This document shows positions 82 through 28,783 of a DNA stretch of 33,188 bases, piece by piece. Position 1 is the first letter of the stretch. Every line of letters begins with the position of its first letter. The stretch lies in the UHGV virus genome UHGV-0218401; one strand, 5' to 3'. This stretch comes from a virus. The notes beneath the pieces were generated by a model that saw nothing but the letters and a program-made list of their open reading frames with translations, was not told the origin of the DNA and made no database searches. A program made the position numbers and the translations under genes.

Positions 82-193
82 AACTGAAGTTGCCCTGAAA
101 ATGAAATTTTTTTGCACAACCGCAGAACTTTTCCGCAGGGCATCAGTCTTAATTAGTGCCACTGCTTTTCTTTGATGTCCCCATTTTGTGGAG

Positions 194-236
194 CCCATCA
201 ACCCCGCCATTTCGGTTCAAGGTTGATGGGTTTTTT
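194..236 (+). terminator. Rho-independent terminator (10-bp stem cccatcaacc/ggttgatggg followed by TTTTTT)
   Basis: Perfect 10-bp inverted repeat at 194-203 and 221-230 with a 17-nt loop, immediately followed by a T6 run at 231-236, downstream of the partial plus-strand gene. Confidence 0.5.
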
Positions 237-297
237 GTTGCCTGATTTTTATGCCGTTTAAAATCATGATGTTAGAAGCATTGCTTTTTAATGATGG

Positions 298-8706: not shown

Positions 8707-8782
8707 AGTGGCGAACCTCCTGATTGGATTAGGCTTCGCCCTATGTTGAAGTGATTGTGCCTGACAAACAGCTAAGCGCAGT

Positions 8783-8800
8783 TGTACCGTTATTCACACA
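8783..8800. promoter_or_regulatory. Ogr-dependent late promoter element (TGT-N12-ACA dyad) for the FI operon
   Basis: tgtACCGTTATTCACaca; dyad centre about 85 nt upstream of the FI start codon, consistent with an activator site at about -55 and a roughly 30-nt leader. Confidence 0.5.
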
Positions 8801-8848
8801 AAATGACGGTATTTGTCTGCTTTCAGGGATAATCAAAATAATGCTGAT

Positions 8849-13490: not shown

Positions 13491-13836
13491 TCTCTGCTCC
13501 TGTTGATACGGAAAGGGAAACAGGCACACCGTTATTACGCCGCCCGATCAGCTCCACCACCATTGAACCGTCAAAATTGCTATTGATGGTGATGGAATCC
13601 AGCGTCAGCCGTGGCTCCCAGCGACTCAGCGCCACATACACTGCCGACATGACCTGCAGGCGTAATGCCGGATTTTGTGGCTGGTCTATCAGTGTCGACA
13701 GCAGGGAACCATATTCACGACGGGCAATGCGGCTACCCTGCGGTGTCAGTAGAATGTCCCGCACCGACTGACGCAGATGGTCAATATCAGTAATGGCTTT
13801 ACCGCTGGTATTGTTCATCCCGCTATAAAGCGTCAT
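13477..13836 (-). CDS. W: Baseplate wedge protein W (gp25/GPW family)
   Basis: 119 aa; ATG overlaps the V stop; P2 order V-W-J. Confidence 0.8.
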   Translation of the reverse strand: MTLYSGMNNTSGKAITDIDHLRQSVRDILLTPQGSRIARREYGSLLSTLIDQPQNPALRLQVMSAVYVALSRWEPRLTLDSITINSNFDGSMVVELIGRRNNGVPVSLSVSTGAENGSD

Positions 13837-14411
13837 ACCGGGCCTCCGGTTGTGTCGCCGCCTTTCAGGACGCCAGTATGCTGATGTGCATCAACCACAA
13901 TTCCGTTAGAACTCATTGCACCGCCGCCCTGGGTAACACCACCATTGATCACTACTTCGCTGTTAATGCGTGTGCGGTCAGCCTCCAGTACAAACTCACT
14001 GGTTTTCATGGTGATATTGTCGGCGGTCTCAATGACCATTGATTTGATGCCCCTGACATACCAGCGCCCGGTGGCGGGTTCGTATTCAAACCAGCCGCCG
14101 TCAGGATGCTCTGTCACGCAGGCATCCGCCGACGTCGACGGTGGTGCGAACTGATTCGAATAGATGGCGGGCAGCGCAAACGCGGTTTCAAGATTTCCGC
14201 CCAGACTCAGCAGCACCACCTGCTCACCTTCCGATGGTTTCCACCATGTGCGGGCATTCCCGGCACGCAGCGTCAGCCAGCTGATCCAGTTGGTTTCGAG
14301 GTCGCCAGTTTTCACCCGACACAGCCAGTTTGCCCTGTCCACTTCGGTGACTACACCTGTGCGGATCAGGTTGGTGATAAGGCGCATGATTTCGGTTAAT
14401 TGTGCGTTCAT
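13833..14411 (-). CDS. V: Baseplate spike protein V (P2 gpV-like)
   Basis: Start placed at the internal ATG (MNAQLTEIMRLITNL...); the 80-codon N-terminal extension in the ORF track runs into AT-rich intergenic DNA and across the late-promoter dyad, so is probably not coding. Confidence 0.75.
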   Translation of the reverse strand: MNAQLTEIMRLITNLIRTGVVTEVDRANWLCRVKTGDLETNWISWLTLRAGNARTWWKPSEGEQVVLLSLGGNLETAFALPAIYSNQFAPPSTSADACVTEHPDGGWFEYEPATGRWYVRGIKSMVIETADNITMKTSEFVLEADRTRINSEVVINGGVTQGGGAMSSNGIVVDAHQHTGVLKGGDTTGGPV

Positions 14412-14457
14412 AGATATATGATGACAGCTGAAAACTTGTTTATAACTTCTTGCAAAT

Positions 14458-14475
14458 TGTGGTATCGATGGTACA
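14458..14475. promoter_or_regulatory. Ogr-dependent late promoter dyad (TGT-N12-ACA) for the V-W-J-I-H-G operon
   Basis: tgtGGTATCGATGGTaca, centred about 55 nt upstream of the chosen V start; perfect dyad. Confidence 0.45.
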
Positions 14476-14514
14476 AATTGATAAAAGGATAAAAAACAAC
14501 CAATAGGTGGATAA

Positions 14515-15321
14515 ATGAGTGTTATGAATCCAATAAGTTCTAATATATTTAATGCTGAATTTTTAAACACCCCGGCAGCGGCACTTGCCGCATGGATTTC
14601 CATTATTGGAGCTGTTATAACTTTGGTGACGATAGTTATAAGAGCACTATTCAAATATAGAAAATCTCATGATGTAATTTTGAAAAAATCAGGAATACCT
14701 GCGTTTATATTAAATTTTTTTCTTATACGAATATCATTAAAAAGGCTGCCTACTATCACATGGGCTGAAAAATCAATCACGGTTCTCTTTTCACTTCTTT
14801 TTTTGTGTGCAATTTATATTTTTGGTCCAGTTTTCATCCAAGCCATTAGAACCCCACCAAATAGCACATTGCTTTATTGGATAAAATCCGGTGAATCATT
14901 TTATATGTCAAAAAAACTGGCGACTGCAGCTACAATATTAACCACTCCTGATTGGGAAATATCAAAGGATGATTGCGAAGAGTCATCCTCTGCCAGTACA
15001 GAGAAGTACAAATCATTAACTATCGAACATAAAGAAATTCTTTGTAAACTACTAACCACTGATGAAGGGAATGCTTACATTGATGAAGAAGTCAAGAATT
15101 TCGTTAAAGACAAATTCTTTATCTATTCCTTTGCCCCAACAACCATATTTATTCTATTATGGATTTCTTTGGGTTTTATACTGACCATTCACTATTCTAA
15201 AAAAGTTAGGAAATATATTCTGACTGAACAAAAAAATGCAATTCATTGGGCATATGGTGAATTCAAGACAGAAGGAATCTATTCAATATATCAAGAGTTA
15301 GAACGTAAGACTCACCATTAA
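14515..15321 (+). CDS. AT-rich moron: polytopic membrane protein of unknown function (268 aa)
   Basis: ATG with AGGTGGA RBS; several hydrophobic helices (e.g. AALAAWISIIGAVITLVTIVIRALF, ITVLFSLLFLCAIYIFGPVF, TTIFILLWISLGFILTIHY); strongly AT-rich; divergent from V and convergent with S; occupies the S-V position where P2 carries orf30. Confidence 0.7.
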   Translation: MSVMNPISSNIFNAEFLNTPAAALAAWISIIGAVITLVTIVIRALFKYRKSHDVILKKSGIPAFILNFFLIRISLKRLPTITWAEKSITVLFSLLFLCAIYIFGPVFIQAIRTPPNSTLLYWIKSGESFYMSKKLATAATILTTPDWEISKDDCEESSSASTEKYKSLTIEHKEILCKLLTTDEGNAYIDEEVKNFVKDKFFIYSFAPTTIFILLWISLGFILTIHYSKKVRKYILTEQKNAIHWAYGEFKTEGIYSIYQELERKTHH

Positions 15322-15709
15322 GACCCAACAAACGACGCTCTGCGTAACGCACTTCCGGTCCTTTGCGGCTGACGCGATCGCGCAGGCCATAATGGTGAAC
15401 GCGGGCAATGCGCTGCACCTTACTTTCAAACTGTACGCTGGCAGAGTCGGCGCTGGCGGCGGTTTTCAGGTATTTGGTGGTGCGCAGCTTTGCAAACATC
15501 TGACGTTTGATGCGGCCTTTTTTACTGCGCGCCGTGACCTTGCGCGGTTCATAACTGCTGCCATCTGGATTGCGCTGCATCCTGATATTCTGCTGCTGTG
15601 TCCGGCGCAGTTCCTGCGCCAGCTGGCGCATCATGCGGCTTCTTGCGACTGGTTCCAGATTCGCCAGTAAGGCACTAAGCCAGTCGTCCACTTTCTGCAG
15701 TTCAGCCAC
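15263..15709 (-). CDS. S: Tail completion protein S (P2 gpS-like)
   Basis: 148 aa; GTG start overlapping the R stop; last about 20 codons lie in the AT-rich moron DNA and overlap the moron 3' end. Confidence 0.75.
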   Translation of the reverse strand: MAELQKVDDWLSALLANLEPVARSRMMRQLAQELRRTQQQNIRMQRNPDGSSYEPRKVTARSKKGRIKRQMFAKLRTTKYLKTAASADSASVQFESKVQRIARVHHYGLRDRVSRKGPEVRYAERRLLGLNGESYVLTLDILNRFLLS

Positions 15710-16386: not shown

Positions 16387-16657
16387 GTTTCAGTTCCTCG
16401 ATCCGGCGTTGTCGTTGTCTCAGCTGTGCGCTGGTCTGTTCTGCTTCGGCATAGAGCCGCGCCTGCTCCCGGTTATTGGTTTCAGTCAGAATGGACAGGC
16501 TGATAAGCTGGCTGTTGCTCTTTGCCAGTGCCTGGCTTTTGCTCTGCAGCTCGTCTGCCTGCGTGCTGATGGTCTGGCTGGCATCAGCCAGCCGCCACGT
16601 CTGCCAGCCCAGCGCCGCCAGTAATAAAGCCAGCACAACCAGCAGCAACCGGTTCAT
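16229..16657 (-). CDS. lysB: Inner-membrane spanin (LysB / Rz-like)
   Basis: N-terminal TM helix (LLLVVLALLLAALGW) followed by a coiled-coil-like charged periplasmic region; follows lysA. Confidence 0.75.
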   Translation of the reverse strand: MNRLLLVVLALLLAALGWQTWRLADASQTISTQADELQSKSQALAKSNSQLISLSILTETNNREQARLYAEAEQTSAQLRQRQRRIEELKRENEDLRRWADTPLPADIIRLRERPALTGGAAYRQWLSASDAVSAGAGSAAH

Positions 16658-17031
16658 GCTGCTACCTGTTGCGCCATCTGATTACGGGTGATCCAGAAGG
16701 CAATAACGGTCAGTAGATAAAAGACTAGGGTAATAGCCCACCCCGTCCAGGCGAGACTTACAACAATCAGCAATCGCATCACCCAACTGGTAAATACGTT
16801 TTCTTTTCGGGTAATTGTCTTCAGCAAAGATGCCCTTAACTCCTGCCAGAGCGGGCCATTCTTAATTAACGCAGCCAGTGCTACCGGAATTACCGCCCAT
16901 GTCAGCAAACAGGCTACCCAAACGCCGGACGCTGCCAGTACCGGAAAAATCCCCTGCGGATACACCATTGCTGCGATTAACAGCGCCATCCATAACATCA
17001 GAAACAGTCCGCTGATTAATTTCTTTTTCAT
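16654..17031 (-). CDS. lysA: LysA-like membrane protein (lysis timing/antiholin-like)
   Basis: Start taken at the ATG at 17031 (MKKKLISGLF...) with GGGAG RBS; four predicted TM helices; immediately after the endolysin stop. Confidence 0.65.
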   Translation of the reverse strand: MKKKLISGLFLMLWMALLIAAMVYPQGIFPVLAASGVWVACLLTWAVIPVALAALIKNGPLWQELRASLLKTITRKENVFTSWVMRLLIVVSLAWTGWAITLVFYLLTVIAFWITRNQMAQQVAA

Positions 17032-17032
17032 T

Positions 17033-17545
17033 TCAGTTTGCTCCCTGTAAACACCAGGCCATCTCCCGCGCACGGCGGTTATCCAGCCCCTGATTAAAAA
17101 CACCTTTCACATAAACCCAGCGCGGCAACTGTCGGCACGCATCTGCCCAGCGCCGCTGATTGAGTAAATTCACCAGCGTGGAACTGCAGGCATTGCCCGT
17201 TCCCACGTTGAAGGCAAACGACACCGCAGCGTCATACACCTTCTGCGGCGGCTGTTGCTTCACACACCTTTCCAGCGCCCGCTCGACACGCAGCACGTTG
17301 GAGATCAGCCCTTCTGCTGCCTGTCGCTCCGTAATGGTTTTGCCGGGAATGACGCCTGACGTATTACCAATGCCGTCGGTCCAGACACCCGCGCTGCACT
17401 GATACGGCTGCAGACGACAACCTTCGTAATCGGCAATCAGTTTCAGCCCCTCCACGGAGGTGTGAAGCTGCTGAAAACCCGGCAGCGTGGCAGCAATAGC
17501 CAGCACGGCCCCGACAAGGCAGCGTTTAACGATTGATGGATTCAT
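17033..17545 (-). CDS. K: Endolysin (lysozyme-like, P2 gpK position), possibly with an N-terminal signal-anchor
   Basis: 170 aa; GGGAGGA RBS; N-terminal hydrophobic segment (CLVGAVLAIAATLPGF) followed by an E...D...T catalytic arrangement typical of T4-lysozyme-like (GH24) enzymes. Confidence 0.85.
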   Translation of the reverse strand: MNPSIVKRCLVGAVLAIAATLPGFQQLHTSVEGLKLIADYEGCRLQPYQCSAGVWTDGIGNTSGVIPGKTITERQAAEGLISNVLRVERALERCVKQQPPQKVYDAAVSFAFNVGTGNACSSTLVNLLNQRRWADACRQLPRWVYVKGVFNQGLDNRRAREMAWCLQGAN

Positions 17546-21070: not shown

Positions 21071-21148
21071 GAGCCGTGCTCCGTTAGAAAAAACTTACTG
21101 GAGCCTTATGGTTGCGGTGATGGGGGCAGTGAAACAATGCGCGGTATT

Positions 21149-21166
21149 TGTACCGACAACCACACA
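21149..21166. promoter_or_regulatory. Late promoter dyad (TGT-N12-ACA) in the divergent O/P control region
   Basis: tgtACCGACAACCACaca between the O start (21070) and P start (21213); cannot be assigned to one direction from sequence alone. Confidence 0.4.
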
Positions 21167-21212
21167 AACCGCAGGCGGGGAAAGCCTTCATTCAAGGCTG
21201 TAGGTTTGTGCC

Positions 21213-24044: not shown

Positions 24045-24716
24045 TTAAAAACCAAGCTCATCTCTGATTCTTGGGAATTTTTTCATTACTCGAATATCAG
24101 TTAATAAATGCCAACGCCAAAAAACAGAAAATGGATATGATACATTACACATTGGCTTTAGCTTATTCTTGGCCTCTTGGATTTCTTGTTCTGTGCTTCG
24201 ATCACTGACAAGTTTCATTCTCCAACCAGTAAAGTAAAACAATTCATCTTGTAACTTCTCTGAGAGATTTGCTCTTGTAATGCCCCTCAACCCCGTACTC
24301 GAAGAGTTAAAACACTTATCTAATAATTTGACTGTATTTAAAACCTTTCTACTTGGTCTTTTTCTTCTTGGGTATACTTGAACACCACTCGTTATAGCGT
24401 TCCCTGCGAGATGAACAATCTCACTGAAAACATCAACATCACTCTTTGTGCAATCAAGTAAGTTTTCAAAAGAATCACTTTTAATACTATTGCATCGACT
24501 GCAAGCTAAAAATAGATTGTTCCAATCATATTTGAGCTCATCAAGATCACGATGTGGAATAAAATGTTCTATCTCTGGATCCATAAGATTACCTTGCTCA
24601 CAGAGATAACATTTTCCATGAAATATTTCGTCTAAAGCATTTACAACTGTTTTATGGTTATATACTTTTCTCGACAAGCATTGAGGTGCAGGAATGTTTC
24701 TAGTAACATTAAACAT
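24045..24716 (-). CDS. ptuB: HNH endonuclease, Septu PtuB-like
   Basis: Motifs CYLCE...EHFIPH...NLFLACSRCNSIK (Cys pairs and His/Asn of an HNH fold); 223 aa; overlaps the upstream ATPase gene; AT-rich. My manual indexing is 1 nt off the ORF track here. Confidence 0.7.
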   Translation of the reverse strand: MFNVTRNIPAPQCLSRKVYNHKTVVNALDEIFHGKCYLCEQGNLMDPEIEHFIPHRDLDELKYDWNNLFLACSRCNSIKSDSFENLLDCTKSDVDVFSEIVHLAGNAITSGVQVYPRRKRPSRKVLNTVKLLDKCFNSSSTGLRGITRANLSEKLQDELFYFTGWRMKLVSDRSTEQEIQEAKNKLKPMCNVSYPFSVFWRWHLLTDIRVMKKFPRIRDELGF

Positions 24717-25947
24717 CGTCTTCCCTTTCGCTATAATCTAAATATTTACTCTTAGCGATCATAAAAGCTGCTTTTGAACTTTTATCAAGAAAATCAATAC
24801 TCTTCTGTAACGTTTTCATTATAGAATGAAATCTATCGTCGAAGAGATTATTTTCTACTAAAGTCATTAATTCTTTAACTAATGCATTTAGCTTATCCGA
24901 AGATACATCCTCACCCAACAATCCCTTTATAATTGCTGTGTAAGAATACAATGATAAATCACCCATCTGATCCAATGTTGAGAGATTAAATATAATCGCA
25001 TCAGATACTGATTGGATTACGAAAGGTGAATGCGTAGAAACAATAAATTGTATTTGCGGAAAAGATGATGAAAAAAAACTAAATACTTTCTTTTGCAATG
25101 TTACATGAAGATGAGCATCAATTTCATCAATAAGTACTATCCCTGTCATATCATGTTTTCTGATTTTATCAAGCTCTGCTTTTATCAATAAATCAGTATA
25201 AATAGAAAGAATTGATGAAAAACCAGATGACAACTTATCAAGTCCAAATGGTTCCTTATTATTTTGTAAAAGATAGATTTTCAACTTGTCGAGATCAAAA
25301 TCCATTCTAATACTTTCATCTTCAAAAAGTTCTTTTAAGTCATCATTAATACTCTCAATAATATCAAAGGCTCTTTTATAGTCATCATCCTTGCCCACTC
25401 CCTTACTGACTAAAGCATAATTCCACAATGTAACTATGTATCTTTCAAAATACATACCAGCATCAATCTTAGAATTATTTCTCTGTGCGTTCCCATACTC
25501 AGTTAACAACAAATCGAGGCTGCTAATCTTACCATCATTTTTTATTTTCGCTTCTCGAATAGCAGGAAATAATCTTATAATTGATTTTTTCTTTTTTGCA
25601 GCAACCCTGAAATCAACCACATCATTAAAAGTAATATCAAAGCTCTCAAATTCTTTTAATTTTTCTTTCAGTCTCTCAATTTCTTCGTTTAAATAGCTAT
25701 AATTACCATCCCCTCTATTTGAATACTTTAAGTTTTCTTGACTGGAATTCAATTCCTTTTGTAGCTGCTCCTTAGTATAAGGATCATGTGAATTAATCGA
25801 TTTTTCTATAAACTCATAAATATTCTCGATCAACCTAGTTTTACCAGAGCCATTATCTCCTGATATTATTAGATTCTTACCATCAAGATTTAATGTGTAA
25901 GGCTCATCGTTCCTTTTAAAGAAGATAGTTTCGATGAAATGTCGCAT
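24709..25947 (-). CDS. ptuA: P-loop ATPase (AAA_15/21-like), Septu PtuA-like
   Basis: Walker A GDNGSGKT, Walker B VLIDEIDAHLH, and STHSP after Walker B; start taken at the ATG at 25947 preceded by GGGAGGA (the ORF track starts 5 codons earlier); 412 aa. Confidence 0.7.
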   Translation of the reverse strand: MRHFIETIFFKRNDEPYTLNLDGKNLIISGDNGSGKTRLIENIYEFIEKSINSHDPYTKEQLQKELNSSQENLKYSNRGDGNYSYLNEEIERLKEKLKEFESFDITFNDVVDFRVAAKKKKSIIRLFPAIREAKIKNDGKISSLDLLLTEYGNAQRNNSKIDAGMYFERYIVTLWNYALVSKGVGKDDDYKRAFDIIESINDDLKELFEDESIRMDFDLDKLKIYLLQNNKEPFGLDKLSSGFSSILSIYTDLLIKAELDKIRKHDMTGIVLIDEIDAHLHVTLQKKVFSFFSSSFPQIQFIVSTHSPFVIQSVSDAIIFNLSTLDQMGDLSLYSYTAIIKGLLGEDVSSDKLNALVKELMTLVENNLFDDRFHSIMKTLQKSIDFLDKSSKAAFMIAKSKYLDYSEREDDV

Positions 25948-26037
25948 TATTCCTCCCGTCATACTTAACAGCTTTTAGATAATATGACATTACATGTTAG
26001 ATTTCATCCGTTTTGTGAACATATCCACTGCCGCGCG

Positions 26038-26056
26038 CTCGTATCCCCGCCACGCC
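26038..26056. other. Probable cos site (19-nt cohesive end region, 186/P2-like)
   Basis: Minus strand reads GGCGTGGCGGGGATACGAG; the first 13 nt match the 186 cohesive end GGCGTGGCGGGGAAAGCAT as I recall it (P2: GGCGAGGCGGGGAAAGCAC), and are followed by GCGCGC. Confidence 0.5.
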
Positions 26057-26097
26057 TGCCCGCTTTATGTAGTGGTTTTCATGCACCTGCATGACAT

Positions 26098-26125
26098 GAG
26101 CAAAAGCCCGCCAGTTCTGGCGGGC
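26098..26125 (-). terminator. Rho-independent terminator downstream of the kinase cassette
   Basis: Minus-strand hairpin gcccgccag-aact-ggcgggc followed by TTTTGC. Confidence 0.45.
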
Positions 26126-26436
26126 CTTAACAAAAACGAGCCTCAAACGTTCATGCAAACTCATGCAGCATAGACATACACTACATCAACAGCATCCATT
26201 GCTATCATTTCCAGTTCGCTTCCTACAACATCATTGCGAATAGTTATGTTACCAAGCGGCTTTTTCATACCTTTTCGGCATGACACTTCAGACGCACCAA
26301 TACTGACGTGTAATGCTTCCCCCGCAACGTCAACCCACTTAATGGTAATTTAATGTAGTTGCATGAGACGAAAAAATCTCCATAGTTGACAGACTCTATA
26401 AATGCAGTATCACTAGCAAGCATGAATAAACATGCA

Positions 26437-27141
26437 TCATCTAACAGATACTTTTGCATAAATCAAAGGCCTATCCGAAGAGCCATTTTTACGTACGACC
26501 ACTCCACTGATATCATGGTTTTTACCAAGATCTCGTAATGAGGCGCACAATGCCTTGTTGACATATCCTAGATGATTGTCGTTTTTCGTTACTAATATGG
26601 CCAGCGGATCAACAGTATTGGTATCTTCATTGCGCAATATGACTTCATCACCAATTGATATCTCGTCAAGAGCTAGACGCCCTTCCTTAATCATGTGTCT
26701 CGTTCCGGCGACCTCCATGACATAATCAAAAGGTGGCCGAATAGAAGACAAGTCTGGGACAAAATAAAAACCATCACTAGCCACTTTTCCGCCAGTACAA
26801 GCGAGCAAAACGAAGTCATTCTCTCTAAAATCAGCAGGAAGACGAAACGTCAGCAAGTAATCGGCAAAATCTTCTCTTTTCCTAGAGGGTAACCTTCTTG
26901 AAAAGGTTTGCATAACGTCTTTGCGATGAGTCGTAACTTTTATGTCAAAAGCAGGAAAACCGTGAAAGCCTTTATCCACAGCTTTAGCAAAATCTTTGCT
27001 ATCCGTAAGATAATTAAACTCGTAGCCTTCAGACTCATCTTGAAGAAGTTCACCAACGACATAGCGAGAGCCGCCGTCGGTCGGTTGCCATGTCAGTAAG
27101 AGCCTACTTGGCATGGGAATTTTTTCTATTAAGATAGTCAT
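26437..27141 (-). CDS. Hypothetical protein (234 aa), third gene of the exonuclease-kinase cassette
   Basis: ATG overlaps the kinase stop (ATGA), implying translational coupling; AT-rich; no motif I can recognise by eye. Confidence 0.6.
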   Translation of the reverse strand: MTILIEKIPMPSRLLLTWQPTDGGSRYVVGELLQDESEGYEFNYLTDSKDFAKAVDKGFHGFPAFDIKVTTHRKDVMQTFSRRLPSRKREDFADYLLTFRLPADFRENDFVLLACTGGKVASDGFYFVPDLSSIRPPFDYVMEVAGTRHMIKEGRLALDEISIGDEVILRNEDTNTVDPLAILVTKNDNHLGYVNKALCASLRDLGKNHDISGVVVRKNGSSDRPLIYAKVSVR

Positions 27142-28049
27142 GAAGTAACACCTTTAATCAGTTCAATACGCATGTTTGTTACACGAACAATCCATGCAGC
27201 ACGTTCTCTAGTCAGCGGAACAGGGCAGTTTATTTCCGTCAACTCCGCAAAAGTTGAGTCCCAAAAGTCATGGTTCAAACGAGCCAGTCTTTCAGCTACC
27301 CGCTGTTTTAATTCTTCTTTTTTATCACAAAGTTCTTTGATTAACTCTAAATGACCTAATCTCTGATACTCATCTTTGCCCAGAGTCTTACGCAAATGAT
27401 GCTTTCCCCGGCTAACATGCTCCCTGAGTCTATGATCGGTCCAATCAGCAACATGTTCCGGAAAACGTTCGTAGCATAAGCTCGTACCATTATCGAAAAA
27501 TGGTGCAAGCTGACACTCGCTGGTTAAAGGTGAGAAGATAAACCCCCAGTTTTCTTGATGTCTATCTGTATTACCTATTACTGCGTCAAAGAGAGCCATA
27601 TTCTCCAACCACTCAACATAGTCAACTTTAAGAGCTTTCGCGATAATCCTCAGCCCTTCAATGGAATGCTTAGCTCCTTTCTCACGATCAAAATTTGGAT
27701 CTCTTCGAACAAAGTAATCACCAGCGGGAGCAAATTTCTCATAATCTTTATGATGAAACCACTCAATGAGGGCCCCGCAAAACGTATGCCCCAAATCATT
27801 AGTCTTTAACGAAGGAACTGCTTTGGGGACATTAAAACCAAGCTGCAATCCAATCCTGTAGGCAACGATCTCACACCAAAATTGATCTGGGTATTTTTTA
27901 ATACTTCTCTTAAAAAGATACGGCCACGATGCTTTGATACCATGGGGGGCAACATCAGGGGAAATAACCAATGCCTTAGAGCGAGCACCAACAGGATACT
28001 GTGCGAAAACATCTAGCTCAGTCCAATAGGTTACATCTAAGCAATCCAT
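27138..28049 (-). CDS. HipA-like Ser/Thr protein kinase (HipA_C-type core, 303 aa)
   Basis: Catalytic-loop signature VIGNTDRHQENWGF (compare HipA ...GATDGHAKNFS); AGGA RBS; ATG start; 15-nt gap after the exonuclease gene. Confidence 0.65.
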   Translation of the reverse strand: MDCLDVTYWTELDVFAQYPVGARSKALVISPDVAPHGIKASWPYLFKRSIKKYPDQFWCEIVAYRIGLQLGFNVPKAVPSLKTNDLGHTFCGALIEWFHHKDYEKFAPAGDYFVRRDPNFDREKGAKHSIEGLRIIAKALKVDYVEWLENMALFDAVIGNTDRHQENWGFIFSPLTSECQLAPFFDNGTSLCYERFPEHVADWTDHRLREHVSRGKHHLRKTLGKDEYQRLGHLELIKELCDKKEELKQRVAERLARLNHDFWDSTFAELTEINCPVPLTRERAAWIVRVTNMRIELIKGVTS

Positions 28050-28064
28050 AGCTAAGTCCTATAT

Positions 28065-28610
28065 TTATTTTTTATTTAAATTCATATAGATGTGAGAAAC
28101 CTGTGCGATCTGAAATAAAACATCATCGAATGCTGTGTGCCTAATGCCAGTGAAATTTTTATCAGCATGAGAAAAAATTCCTTTGCTTTCACCAAGTGCT
28201 AAGATGGTTCTAACGTCAAGAGTATCTCTGAATGACCATGGGCAATCCAGACCCGCCTGTAACAGGGCATGATGCATGATCGTGCAGTCAAACTCTTTCC
28301 CGTTTCCCCACACTTTTACTCGGCCAGTACGATTATGAAGAATAAATGCCACAAATTCATTCAGAACCTCTAAAAGGTCCTTAGTGCCATCAAAATTTTC
28401 GTTTTTAGCTTCAGTACTTTGATTCATCCACCACTTTACAGTAGAGGGGGCAATGGTTCTGCCTGCTTGTTCATGATCAAGCGAAATAACTTGATAGAAA
28501 CCCGGACCAATCTCGCCAGTCTCCGGCACGAAAAAAGCCGCACCAACTGAAAGGATATAAGCTGTTTTTTCAACATCCAATGTTTCTATATCTAACATTA
28601 CATGATTCAT
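28065..28610 (-). CDS. DEDDh-type 3'-5' exonuclease (DnaQ/RNase T-like fold)
   Basis: Exo I MLDIETLD (D-x-E), Exo II VWGNGKEFD, Exo III H-x4-D in GIRHTAFDDV; ATG at 28610 chosen (ORF track begins at a TTG three codons earlier); about 181 aa. Confidence 0.7.
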   Translation of the reverse strand: MNHVMLDIETLDVEKTAYILSVGAAFFVPETGEIGPGFYQVISLDHEQAGRTIAPSTVKWWMNQSTEAKNENFDGTKDLLEVLNEFVAFILHNRTGRVKVWGNGKEFDCTIMHHALLQAGLDCPWSFRDTLDVRTILALGESKGIFSHADKNFTGIRHTAFDDVLFQIAQVSHIYMNLNKK

Positions 28611-28783
28611 AAGAAGCAATTGAAACCATTTAGTAAAAATTGAAAGCTATCACCACATTAATGCATGGCATATACATTTGTGGACGAAAACAAGTATTCT
28701 GATTATAACCCAAGTGAAAATCTCAAGTGTCGTAACTTTCACTCGGTTGTTTTCAGTTTCGAAAAACTACTGGGAAGATCCAT

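Follow-up and report, generated by a model that had tools for sequence, protein, structure and literature searches.

UHGV virus genome UHGV-0218401, a stretch of 33,188 nucleotides that we refer to in full as the window, is a P2/186-like prophage whose late genes are read from the minus strand. Between the tail completion gene S (15263-15709, minus strand, 148 aa; Pfam Phage_tail_S, 1.9e-38) and the baseplate spike gene V (13833-14411, minus strand, 192 aa; Pfam Phage_base_V and Apex motif) lies an AT-rich block of 919 bp (14414-15332). It carries on the plus strand a gene of the DUF6216 family that encodes 268 amino acids (14515-15321, the end including the stop codon), recognized as an open reading frame (ORF) with a match to Pfam PF19723 and with homologues in other genomes. 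The block, delimited by its composition and by alignment to an empty site, is best explained as cargo gained by horizontal transfer, a cassette occupying the S-V (orf30) slot, which is known to be variable. It consists of a putative extended -10 sigma-70 promoter of its own, the gene for a DUF6216-family protein of predicted inner-membrane location and a recoded 3' end of S.

Structure of the S-V cassette

The guanine-cytosine (GC) content of the block is 0.328, compared with 0.552 and 0.570 in its flanks and 0.504 in the window as a whole, and only two other islands of low GC exist in the window. Its edges were defined by alignment to the empty S-V junction of Escherichia phage 500465-1, which has a 68-bp intergenic region. 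On the left, identity to the empty site ends two bases past the V start codon (14413/14414); on the right, it returns inside S (~15332/15333), and the 919 bp stand where the empty junction has ~134 bp. Among prophages with near-identical flanks the site is either filled or empty: the full block was found in 111 of 5426 complete E. coli genomes, and many others have an empty configuration of ~366 bp. In P2-like phages, orf30 is one of three loci of horizontally acquired genes (PMC3091744). The first-pass annotation, made from the letters of the sequence, had described an AT-rich foreign moron of roughly 0.9 kb, divergent from V and at the position of P2 orf30. This description proved accurate, as the block lies between S and V on the opposite strand, is non-core (close relatives have the empty junction), deviates in composition and matches P2 Orf30 in place and orientation.

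An important question is whether the gene is preceded by a promoter of its own. A candidate sigma-70 promoter is present at 14450-14477 on the plus strand, exactly where the first-pass annotation had placed TTGCAA-N16-TACAAA. It consists of a -35 element TTGCAA (14450-14455), a 16-nt spacer and a -10 element TACAAA (14472-14477), and the last three bases of the spacer, TGG (14469-14471), form an extended -10 'TGn'. The good ribosome-binding site reported earlier was also found: a Shine-Dalgarno sequence AGGTGG (14505-14510, plus strand) stands 4 nt 5' of the ATG, and most relatives have GGAGG at this place in the alignment of upstream regions. All nine of the close relatives share CTTGCAA and GATGGTACAA in this alignment, with CTTGAAA in locus L023 and GAGTGGTACAA in locus L006 as variants. 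The element TGnTA(c/a)AAA recurs in the distant members L010, L013 and L019.

The promoter overlaps a second signal. An Ogr-type activator dyad of the V late promoter, TTGT-N12-ACAA, is located at 14457-14476 (no strand assigned) and covers part of the spacer and the -10 element, which confirms the overlap noticed in the first-pass annotation. This motif occurs exactly three times in the window against 0.73 occurrences expected by chance, the other two being situated between FI and G (8782-8801) and between O and P (21148-21167), where the late promoters PF and PO/PP are expected; all three match late-promoter positions of P2. The centre of the V-side dyad is 55.5 bp from the V ATG, the same geometry is seen in the P2 annotation, in which the activator site lies ahead of a V transcript starting at the ATG, and the dyad is present at the empty site too. 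The possibility that the presumed promoter is only the Ogr dyad was rejected: the -35 and -10 elements (TTGCAA and TGnTACAAA) persist even in L022, L023 and L006, loci that have no V or only a V pseudogene and in which the dyad has lost its TGT half by decay. We therefore read the motif as the gene's own putative promoter, apparently maintained by selection on the gene itself. From it the DUF6216 gene would be transcribed in the lysogen. Judging from the geometry, the late activator bound to the overlapping dyad may occlude this promoter, and late transcription, on passing through S, would enter the DUF6216 gene in the antisense direction and could help to shut it off.

The third part of the cassette is the end of S. 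The two genes overlap by 59 nt, S codons 130-148 (15263-15321) being antisense to the last 19 sense codons and the stop codon of the DUF6216 gene. The GC content of these last 19 codons of S is 0.35 versus 0.57 for the remaining part, in agreement with the earlier statement that S ends with about 20 codons of AT-rich DNA shared with the 3' end of the moron. The S proteins of the window and of 500465-1, both 148 aa long, are nearly identical up to residue 129 and diverge after it. In every DUF6216-carrying prophage examined, the last 17-25 codons of S are AT-rich (GC 0.15-0.37 versus 0.52-0.60 in the rest of S), and in all of them these codons overlap the 3' end of the DUF6216 gene. A comparison of the C-termini of S (window, LLGLNGESYVLTLDILNRFLLS; empty site, LLGVNDDVEAMTRDMILQWLAG; P2, LLGFTGEDVQMIEEIILAHLER) showed that the residue pattern of an ordinary S C-terminus is preserved in the AT-rich ends; the end of S is therefore a functional variant travelling with the cassette rather than debris. 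The end of S, which the first-pass annotation regarded as rebuilt by recombination, was thus not replaced arbitrarily.

Conservation of the gene and its retention in decaying prophages

The protein passes the gathering threshold of Pfam DUF6216 (PF19723; 45.6 bits versus 27.3, E 7e-12), and its close homologues all have a precomputed match to the same family. The match is partial, with residues 72-237 aligned to profile positions 114-265 of 270, and PF19723 is itself a family without an assigned function. DNA of E. coli BL21(DE3) is 99% identical to the cassette, and the product is labelled in RefSeq as 'DUF6216 family protein' (WP_000115390.1). The near-identical cassette sits in the defective P2-like prophage of E. 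coli B, being present in BL21(DE3), REL606, C41/C43 and others; the E. coli B derivatives carrying the gene include T7 Express. A search of 5.8 billion proteins revealed 32 relatives with 50-99% identity, belonging to Escherichia, Salmonella, Klebsiella, Citrobacter and Serratia, and a profile scan of genome contigs with the alignment of close relatives revealed five loci. An exhaustive profile search of 1.84 billion representatives gave 49 members in total; the DUF6216 family is therefore small and patchy. The protein had zero matches in a tblastn search against 50,697 phage records, which means that the gene is in no deposited phage genome of that collection.

Pairs in which dS is unsaturated have Nei-Gojobori ratios of nonsynonymous to synonymous substitutions (dN/dS) of 0.15-0.3; between the window and Citrobacter youngae, for instance, dN is 0.096 and dS is 0.369. 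All copies remain low in GC (33-41%). We conclude that this is a real gene, conserved and maintained by purifying selection. The first-pass annotation had made its proposal hinge on the existence of conserved homologues, and such homologues were found.

Is the position between S and V the result of a single recent insertion or a long-term residence? The latter is supported by very distant members: the protein P0061 of Tatumella sp., with 19% identity to the window protein, and a Buttiauxella copy with 47% identity share with it the S-V slot, the orientation and the overlap with S. Since such distant members occupy it, the DUF6216 family is a long-term resident of the slot, and its presence there is no one-off recent event.

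The surroundings of the gene in bacterial genomes are also informative. The small RNA gene rybB is located at the host edge of the window (161-239, plus strand; Rfam RF00110, 105 bits with a gathering score of 40), which places the prophage in the ybjL-rybB-rcdA interval of E. coli; the attachment site is shared with the defective prophage of E. coli B in this interval. That prophage has undergone large deletions, with the DUF6216 gene left intact. In C. youngae, the intact gene lies among pseudogene fragments of V, S and R; in an uncultured Enterobacteriaceae bacterium, it is accompanied by an ogr fragment; and in Scandinavium, the intact gene occurs with a V pseudogene, CI, an Old-like ATPase and an int fragment. 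In C. sedlakii, DUF6216 is the sole phage gene detected between ybjL and rcdA, and the gene was found on >150 contigs of C. sedlakii and other Citrobacter assemblies. Franconibacter, Cedecea and others also have orphan copies in the ybjL-rcdA interval, and numerous DUF6216 records come from Franconibacter pulveris and F. daqui. A second site, dnaG-rpoD-mug, was found in Klebsiella aerogenes and Serratia rubidaea, where the gene is intact amid truncated fragments of V, S, R, O, P, Q and A; another relative near rpoD-mug adjoins a Fic-domain gene. Moreover, the relative P0045 (244 aa; L028 4914-5648) is encoded within a transfer gene cluster of the integrative and conjugative element (ICE) type, with TraG-D/T4CP, DtrJ-like, RAQPRD, DUF3262, DUF2976 and DUF3487 genes as neighbours, and the family is thus not confined to phages. 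No conserved partner gene next to DUF6216 was found in any genomic context examined.

These data show that the gene is selectively retained by the host as the prophage decays. Such repeated survival speaks for a host benefit that depends on no further phage gene, and the ybjL-rcdA series of decay stages provides a clean natural case of the domestication of a prophage moron. The opposite direction of transfer, with the ybjL-rcdA orphans as the ancestral chromosomal source of the phage gene, is less likely, because fragments of V, S, R, ogr, CI and int flank several of them. For the two most divergent orphans, L010 and L013, no phage remnant was detectable, and to these two the ancestral-source reading may apply.

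Predicted topology and probable kinship to P2 Orf30

By the Kyte-Doolittle scale (19-residue window, >=1.6), three hydrophobic segments of the protein exceed the threshold (residues ~21-45, 86-109 and 201-226), and the same three stand out in the mean hydropathy of 33 family members. In the AlphaFold2 model (18-sequence alignment; predicted local distance difference test, pLDDT, 79; predicted template modelling score, pTM, 0.62), there are long helices at the transmembrane (TM) segments, four beta strands within residues 118-150, short helices within 151-181 and a long helix through TM3. The TM helices expected by the first-pass annotation, which had described a polytopic membrane protein of 268 aa, were therefore recovered by two approaches. 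Lysine and arginine residues are absent from the N-terminus and number 8 in the loop 46-85, 12 in the 91 residues of the central part (110-200, net negative) and 8 in the tail (227-268). Because of this distribution, the N-terminus is predicted to be outside, the loop inside, the central domain outside and the tail inside. The three conserved TM segments together with this positive-inside topology predict placement in the inner membrane.

All parts of the protein are encoded on the plus strand. TM1 (residues 21-45; 14575-14649) follows the predicted periplasmic N-terminus and corresponds to AlphaFold2 helix 20-46. The predicted cytoplasmic loop (46-85; 14650-14769) contains, besides its 8 basic residues, 2 aspartate or glutamate residues, and short amphipathic helices were modelled at 54-58 and 63-68. 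TM2 (86-109; 14770-14841) is followed by the central domain (110-200; 14842-15114), which is predicted to be periplasmic and to consist of the four beta strands and helices, and by TM3 (201-226; 15115-15192). The predicted cytoplasmic basic tail (227-268; 15193-15318), delimited by alignments and charge count, includes the conserved motif YSKKxRKYILxEQ. A C-terminal extension from residue ~246 to 268 is present in relatives beside S or in some prophage remnants, and short orphan copies (225-246 aa) are without it. In 33 sequences, with identity down to 18%, only F129, C154 and C177 are invariant, and C154 and C177 probably form a disulfide holding together the periplasmic beta/alpha domain of ~90 residues. 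Foldseek comparisons with BFVD (predicted viral protein structures) and PDB gave only E > 0.4, i.e., no match to a known fold. We also considered whether the protein is a holin, and this identity was rejected: the score with the HP1 family PF16080 was 14.5 bits versus a threshold of 28.8 (E 0.037), and the match covers the TM1 helix only.

Another important question is whether the protein is related to the P2 protein that occupies the same position. P2 Orf30 (NP_046770.1), marked 'nonessential' in the P2 record, is encoded in the same S-V slot, divergent from V and convergent with S, and is similar in length (261 versus 268 aa). In the AlphaFold2 model of Orf30 (pLDDT 72), the elements follow one another as in the DUF6216 model: TM1 and cytoplasmic helices, then TM2, four beta strands, helices with the cysteines and a long helix containing TM3. 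In both models, the first cysteine ('DC') is in a short helix after strand 4 and the second is in the helix before TM3. The sequence similarity is marginal (BLASTP E 0.04), and Orf30 has no match to Pfam DUF6216. The profile-profile score between the two families over the Cys-Cys-TM3 region was 29.3 (hhalign probability 14%, E 0.002). This value exceeded all 60 column-shuffled controls (mean 14.1, sd 2.5, max 19.2), being about 6 sd above them, as well as the highest of the 60 block-shuffled controls (22.3) and the score of the reversed control (16.9). There are also differences: the cytoplasmic loop is longer in Orf30, and in P2 a terminator separates S from orf30, whereas in the window S overlaps the DUF6216 gene. 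Taken together, the profile and model comparisons make remote homology between DUF6216 and P2 Orf30 probable, although not proven. Such kinship in itself points to no mechanism.

Accessory cargo and possible function

The S-V slot of E. coli prophages with this type of V was found in four states: empty, with DUF6216, with a soluble protein of 288 aa or with a GmrSD-like nuclease. The nuclease, a protein of 461 aa with a GmrSD_N domain, takes the place of DUF6216 in E. coli P276M (NZ_CP044293.1, L027 2891-4276) and matches the PADLOC families NsnA (2e-23) and PD-T4-2_A (1e-17). Its prophage is degraded and occupies the same attachment site, and the 5' end of its V is 100% identical over 114 nt. 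The 288-aa hypothetical protein WP_001579974.1 is the slot cargo in E. coli DG341-1 (NZ_OZ392436.1, L026 508-1374) and has no Pfam or PADLOC match; kinship of this soluble protein to DUF6216 or Orf30 was considered and rejected. AT-rich non-essential cargo swapped at fixed slots is a known property of P2/P4 hotspots (PMC9122126, PMC13586616, 10.1101/2024.10.15.618418). In term searches, orf30, gpS and gpV were not mentioned in PMC9122126 and PMC13586616, and orf30 was absent from 10.1101/2024.10.15.618418; the S-V slot is not among the hotspots that these studies covered.

The window holds two further AT-rich islands. The first, on the minus strand between the RybB-side junction and ogr (386-1313; ogr at 1560-1811), encodes a 256-aa reverse transcriptase (PF00078 2e-18; PADLOC RT_VI/RT_I-B ~1e-17) followed by a 64-aa hydrophobic ORF (1119-1313); the reverse transcriptase and the small membrane protein, as its effector, are a possible defence pair. 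The second island (24045-28619) lies in the portal-replication (old/tin) hotspot and encodes on the minus strand a Septu system (24045-25962; PtuA of 417 aa, PADLOC 1e-121; PtuB of 223 aa, HNH, 2e-82), the PADLOC candidate system PDC-M03 within 26437-28619 (A, HipA_C-like, 27138-28049; B, HIRAN domain, 26437-27141) and an Rv2179c-like 3'-5' exoribonuclease (28065-28619). In the prophage of BL21(DE3), the old/tin hotspot contains a reverse transcriptase of the St85 retron family with its effector (L014 9890-11938), and related prophages with the DUF6216 cassette thus differ in their defence cargo. In addition, a 149-aa hydrophobic ORF without a Pfam match lies on the minus strand in the lysis cassette of the window, between the endolysin gene and lysB (16654-17103); the protein at this position in a relative is named 'DNZ54_00345 family protein' in RefSeq.

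What, then, could be the function of the DUF6216 protein? For a membrane protein expressed by the lysogen from this position, the first-pass annotation had suggested superinfection exclusion or abortive infection. Superinfection exclusion seems to us the most likely mechanism, although we hold this preference tentatively. The idea is drawn by analogy from P22 SieA, which is a single prophage-expressed inner-membrane protein and alone suffices to block DNA injection at the inner membrane (PMC10883804). The DUF6216 protein would act alone at the cell envelope and without killing the cell, its periplasmic domain obstructing at the inner membrane either the transit of superinfecting phage DNA or the injection apparatus. 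Exclusion at the step of DNA entry is favoured by the short cytoplasmic parts, by the lack of a conserved partner and by the predicted location of the largest soluble part in the periplasm. An association with defence is also suggested by the context, namely, the nuclease in the same slot, the reverse transcriptase, Septu and PDC-M03 in the other islands and the relative in an ICE. The circumstantial case for a host-beneficial envelope function expressed in the lysogen is stronger than the first-pass annotation could know, and its retention in decayed prophages makes the DUF6216 protein a good candidate for blocking infection by other phages.

Several observations weigh against superinfection exclusion. 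No sequence or fold similarity to characterised exclusion proteins of the SieA, Imm or gp15 type was detected; the protein matched 0 families at E <= 10 in PADLOC-DB v2, its best E in PHROGs was 0.16, and NCBIfam gave no significant match. The topology is a computational prediction, and nothing on function was found in the literature on DUF6216 or its RefSeq accession. Most prophages with this V type are without the gene, and in the closest complete genome it is frameshifted and hence dispensable. A generic consensus promoter scan did not call TTGCAA-N16-TACAAA, as the -10 element ends without the conserved T, and in E. coli H-NS often silences foreign DNA rich in AT. Finally, retention in decayed prophages speaks for a benefit to the host and not specifically for anti-phage activity. 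No homology supports exclusion or any of its rivals.

There is a second possibility, which we consider doubtful but deserving attention: the protein could be an envelope factor that increases host fitness and is unrelated to phages, i.e., a case of lysogenic conversion in the broad sense, such as tolerance to colicins, tailocins, contact-dependent toxins, bile or antimicrobial peptides or modulation of a host membrane complex. A general fitness gene would be expected to become fixed in entire species as a chromosomal orphan, as is seen in C. sedlakii and Franconibacter; the complete lack of defence-model matches agrees with it, and a domain predicted to face the periplasm would suit many envelope roles. 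Nevertheless, all habitats found are mobile elements or attachment sites (the S-V slot, the ICE and the remnants at ybjL-rcdA and rpoD-mug), this phage's other cargo islands, like the slot, contain defence genes, and a family so small and patchy is unlike typical housekeeping envelope factors.

A post-entry defence is unlikely. In abortive infection of the RexB or Abi type, the protein would sense infection and collapse membrane integrity or the proton-motive force, so that the infected cell dies before phage development is complete, and hotspot precedent together with the same cargo context is in line with such a role: defences made of one gene, and those with a membrane effector, are frequent in P2/P4 hotspots, where TM proteins are as a rule interpreted as suicide effectors (PMC9122126). 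However, a 40-residue loop and a 42-residue tail leave scant room for a cytoplasmic sensor, the gene has neither a recurrent partner nor a PADLOC match, and its stable presence as a species-wide orphan is unlike that of a hair-trigger toxin.

It is quite improbable that the gene is a silent or nearly neutral passenger hitch-hiking in H-NS-silenced AT-rich DNA. The foreign composition, the non-canonical -10 element, the frameshift in the closest genome and the absence from most related prophages would fit such a passenger, but they are opposed by dN/dS of 0.15-0.3 over dS up to ~2, by the conservation of the cysteines, TM segments and promoter across 18-99% identity and by the ORF remaining intact beside pseudogenised neighbours in several genera. 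A role in phage development, either in the timing of lysis (holin- or antiholin-like) or in accessory tail or baseplate assembly, is very improbable, since the mid-late-region place, the 59-nt overlap with S and the sub-threshold holin match (to a TM helix alone) are outweighed by transcription opposite to both late operons from a promoter overlapped by the late-activator site, by absence from many near-identical prophages and all of the phage records searched, by the nonessential annotation of P2 Orf30 in the same slot and by the intactness of the gene where lysis and tail genes are deleted or pseudogenised.

Returning to exclusion, a broader picture can be proposed, which as a whole is speculative and in our opinion rather unlikely to hold in all its parts. 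DUF6216 and P2 Orf30 may form an ancient superfamily of stand-alone inner-membrane proteins, with the S-V slot of P2-like phages as their dedicated place and ICEs as occasional carriers. They would block foreign DNA or contractile injection machines at the inner membrane by means of a disulfide-stabilised periplasmic domain whose fold has no solved relative, would be valuable enough to have been repeatedly domesticated by Enterobacterales, outlasting all other genes of decayed prophages, and would possibly be switched off by the phage's late activator through the overlap with the promoter.

The gene had already been catalogued as a DUF and the S-V slot had been described; the occurrence in E. 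coli B and BL21, the fidelity of distant members to the slot and the intact survival in decayed prophages are new, as are the probable remote kinship to P2 Orf30 and the GmrSD-like nuclease in the same slot of another E. coli prophage. If the protein does exclude phages, it would represent a new family of exclusion or defence proteins with an unrecognised fold, a function would be assigned to P2 Orf30, unexplained since the annotation of the P2 genome, and the S-V interval would be established as a third defence-cargo slot of P2-like phages. The phage susceptibility of the most widely used protein-expression strains and of the long-term evolution strain could also be influenced, as BL21(DE3) and REL606 carry the gene.

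How does the DUF6216 protein compare with known systems? Like SieA, it is a single, small, prophage-borne protein predicted to reside in the inner membrane and encoded in non-essential accessory DNA. Unlike proteins of the SieA type, it has three TM segments and a predicted periplasmic, cysteine-containing domain of ~90 residues. T4 Imm and HK97 gp15 are further inner-membrane proteins of phages that function in superinfection exclusion. Conjugative elements have their own entry-exclusion proteins, such as F TraS and SXT Eex, which are small inner-membrane proteins blocking incoming DNA. The DUF6216 protein resembles these in being a small predicted inner-membrane protein of mobile elements with one relative in an ICE transfer cluster, but homology to F TraS or SXT Eex was not detected, and the ICE case is single and could be ordinary cargo. 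The closest parallel in terms of location is the cargo of P2 itself (old, tin, Z/fun) and of the P2/P4 hotspots, which, like the cassette described here, is AT-rich non-essential DNA between core genes. In contrast to the rapid swapping of hotspot cargo, however, DUF6216 stays in its slot over deep divergence.

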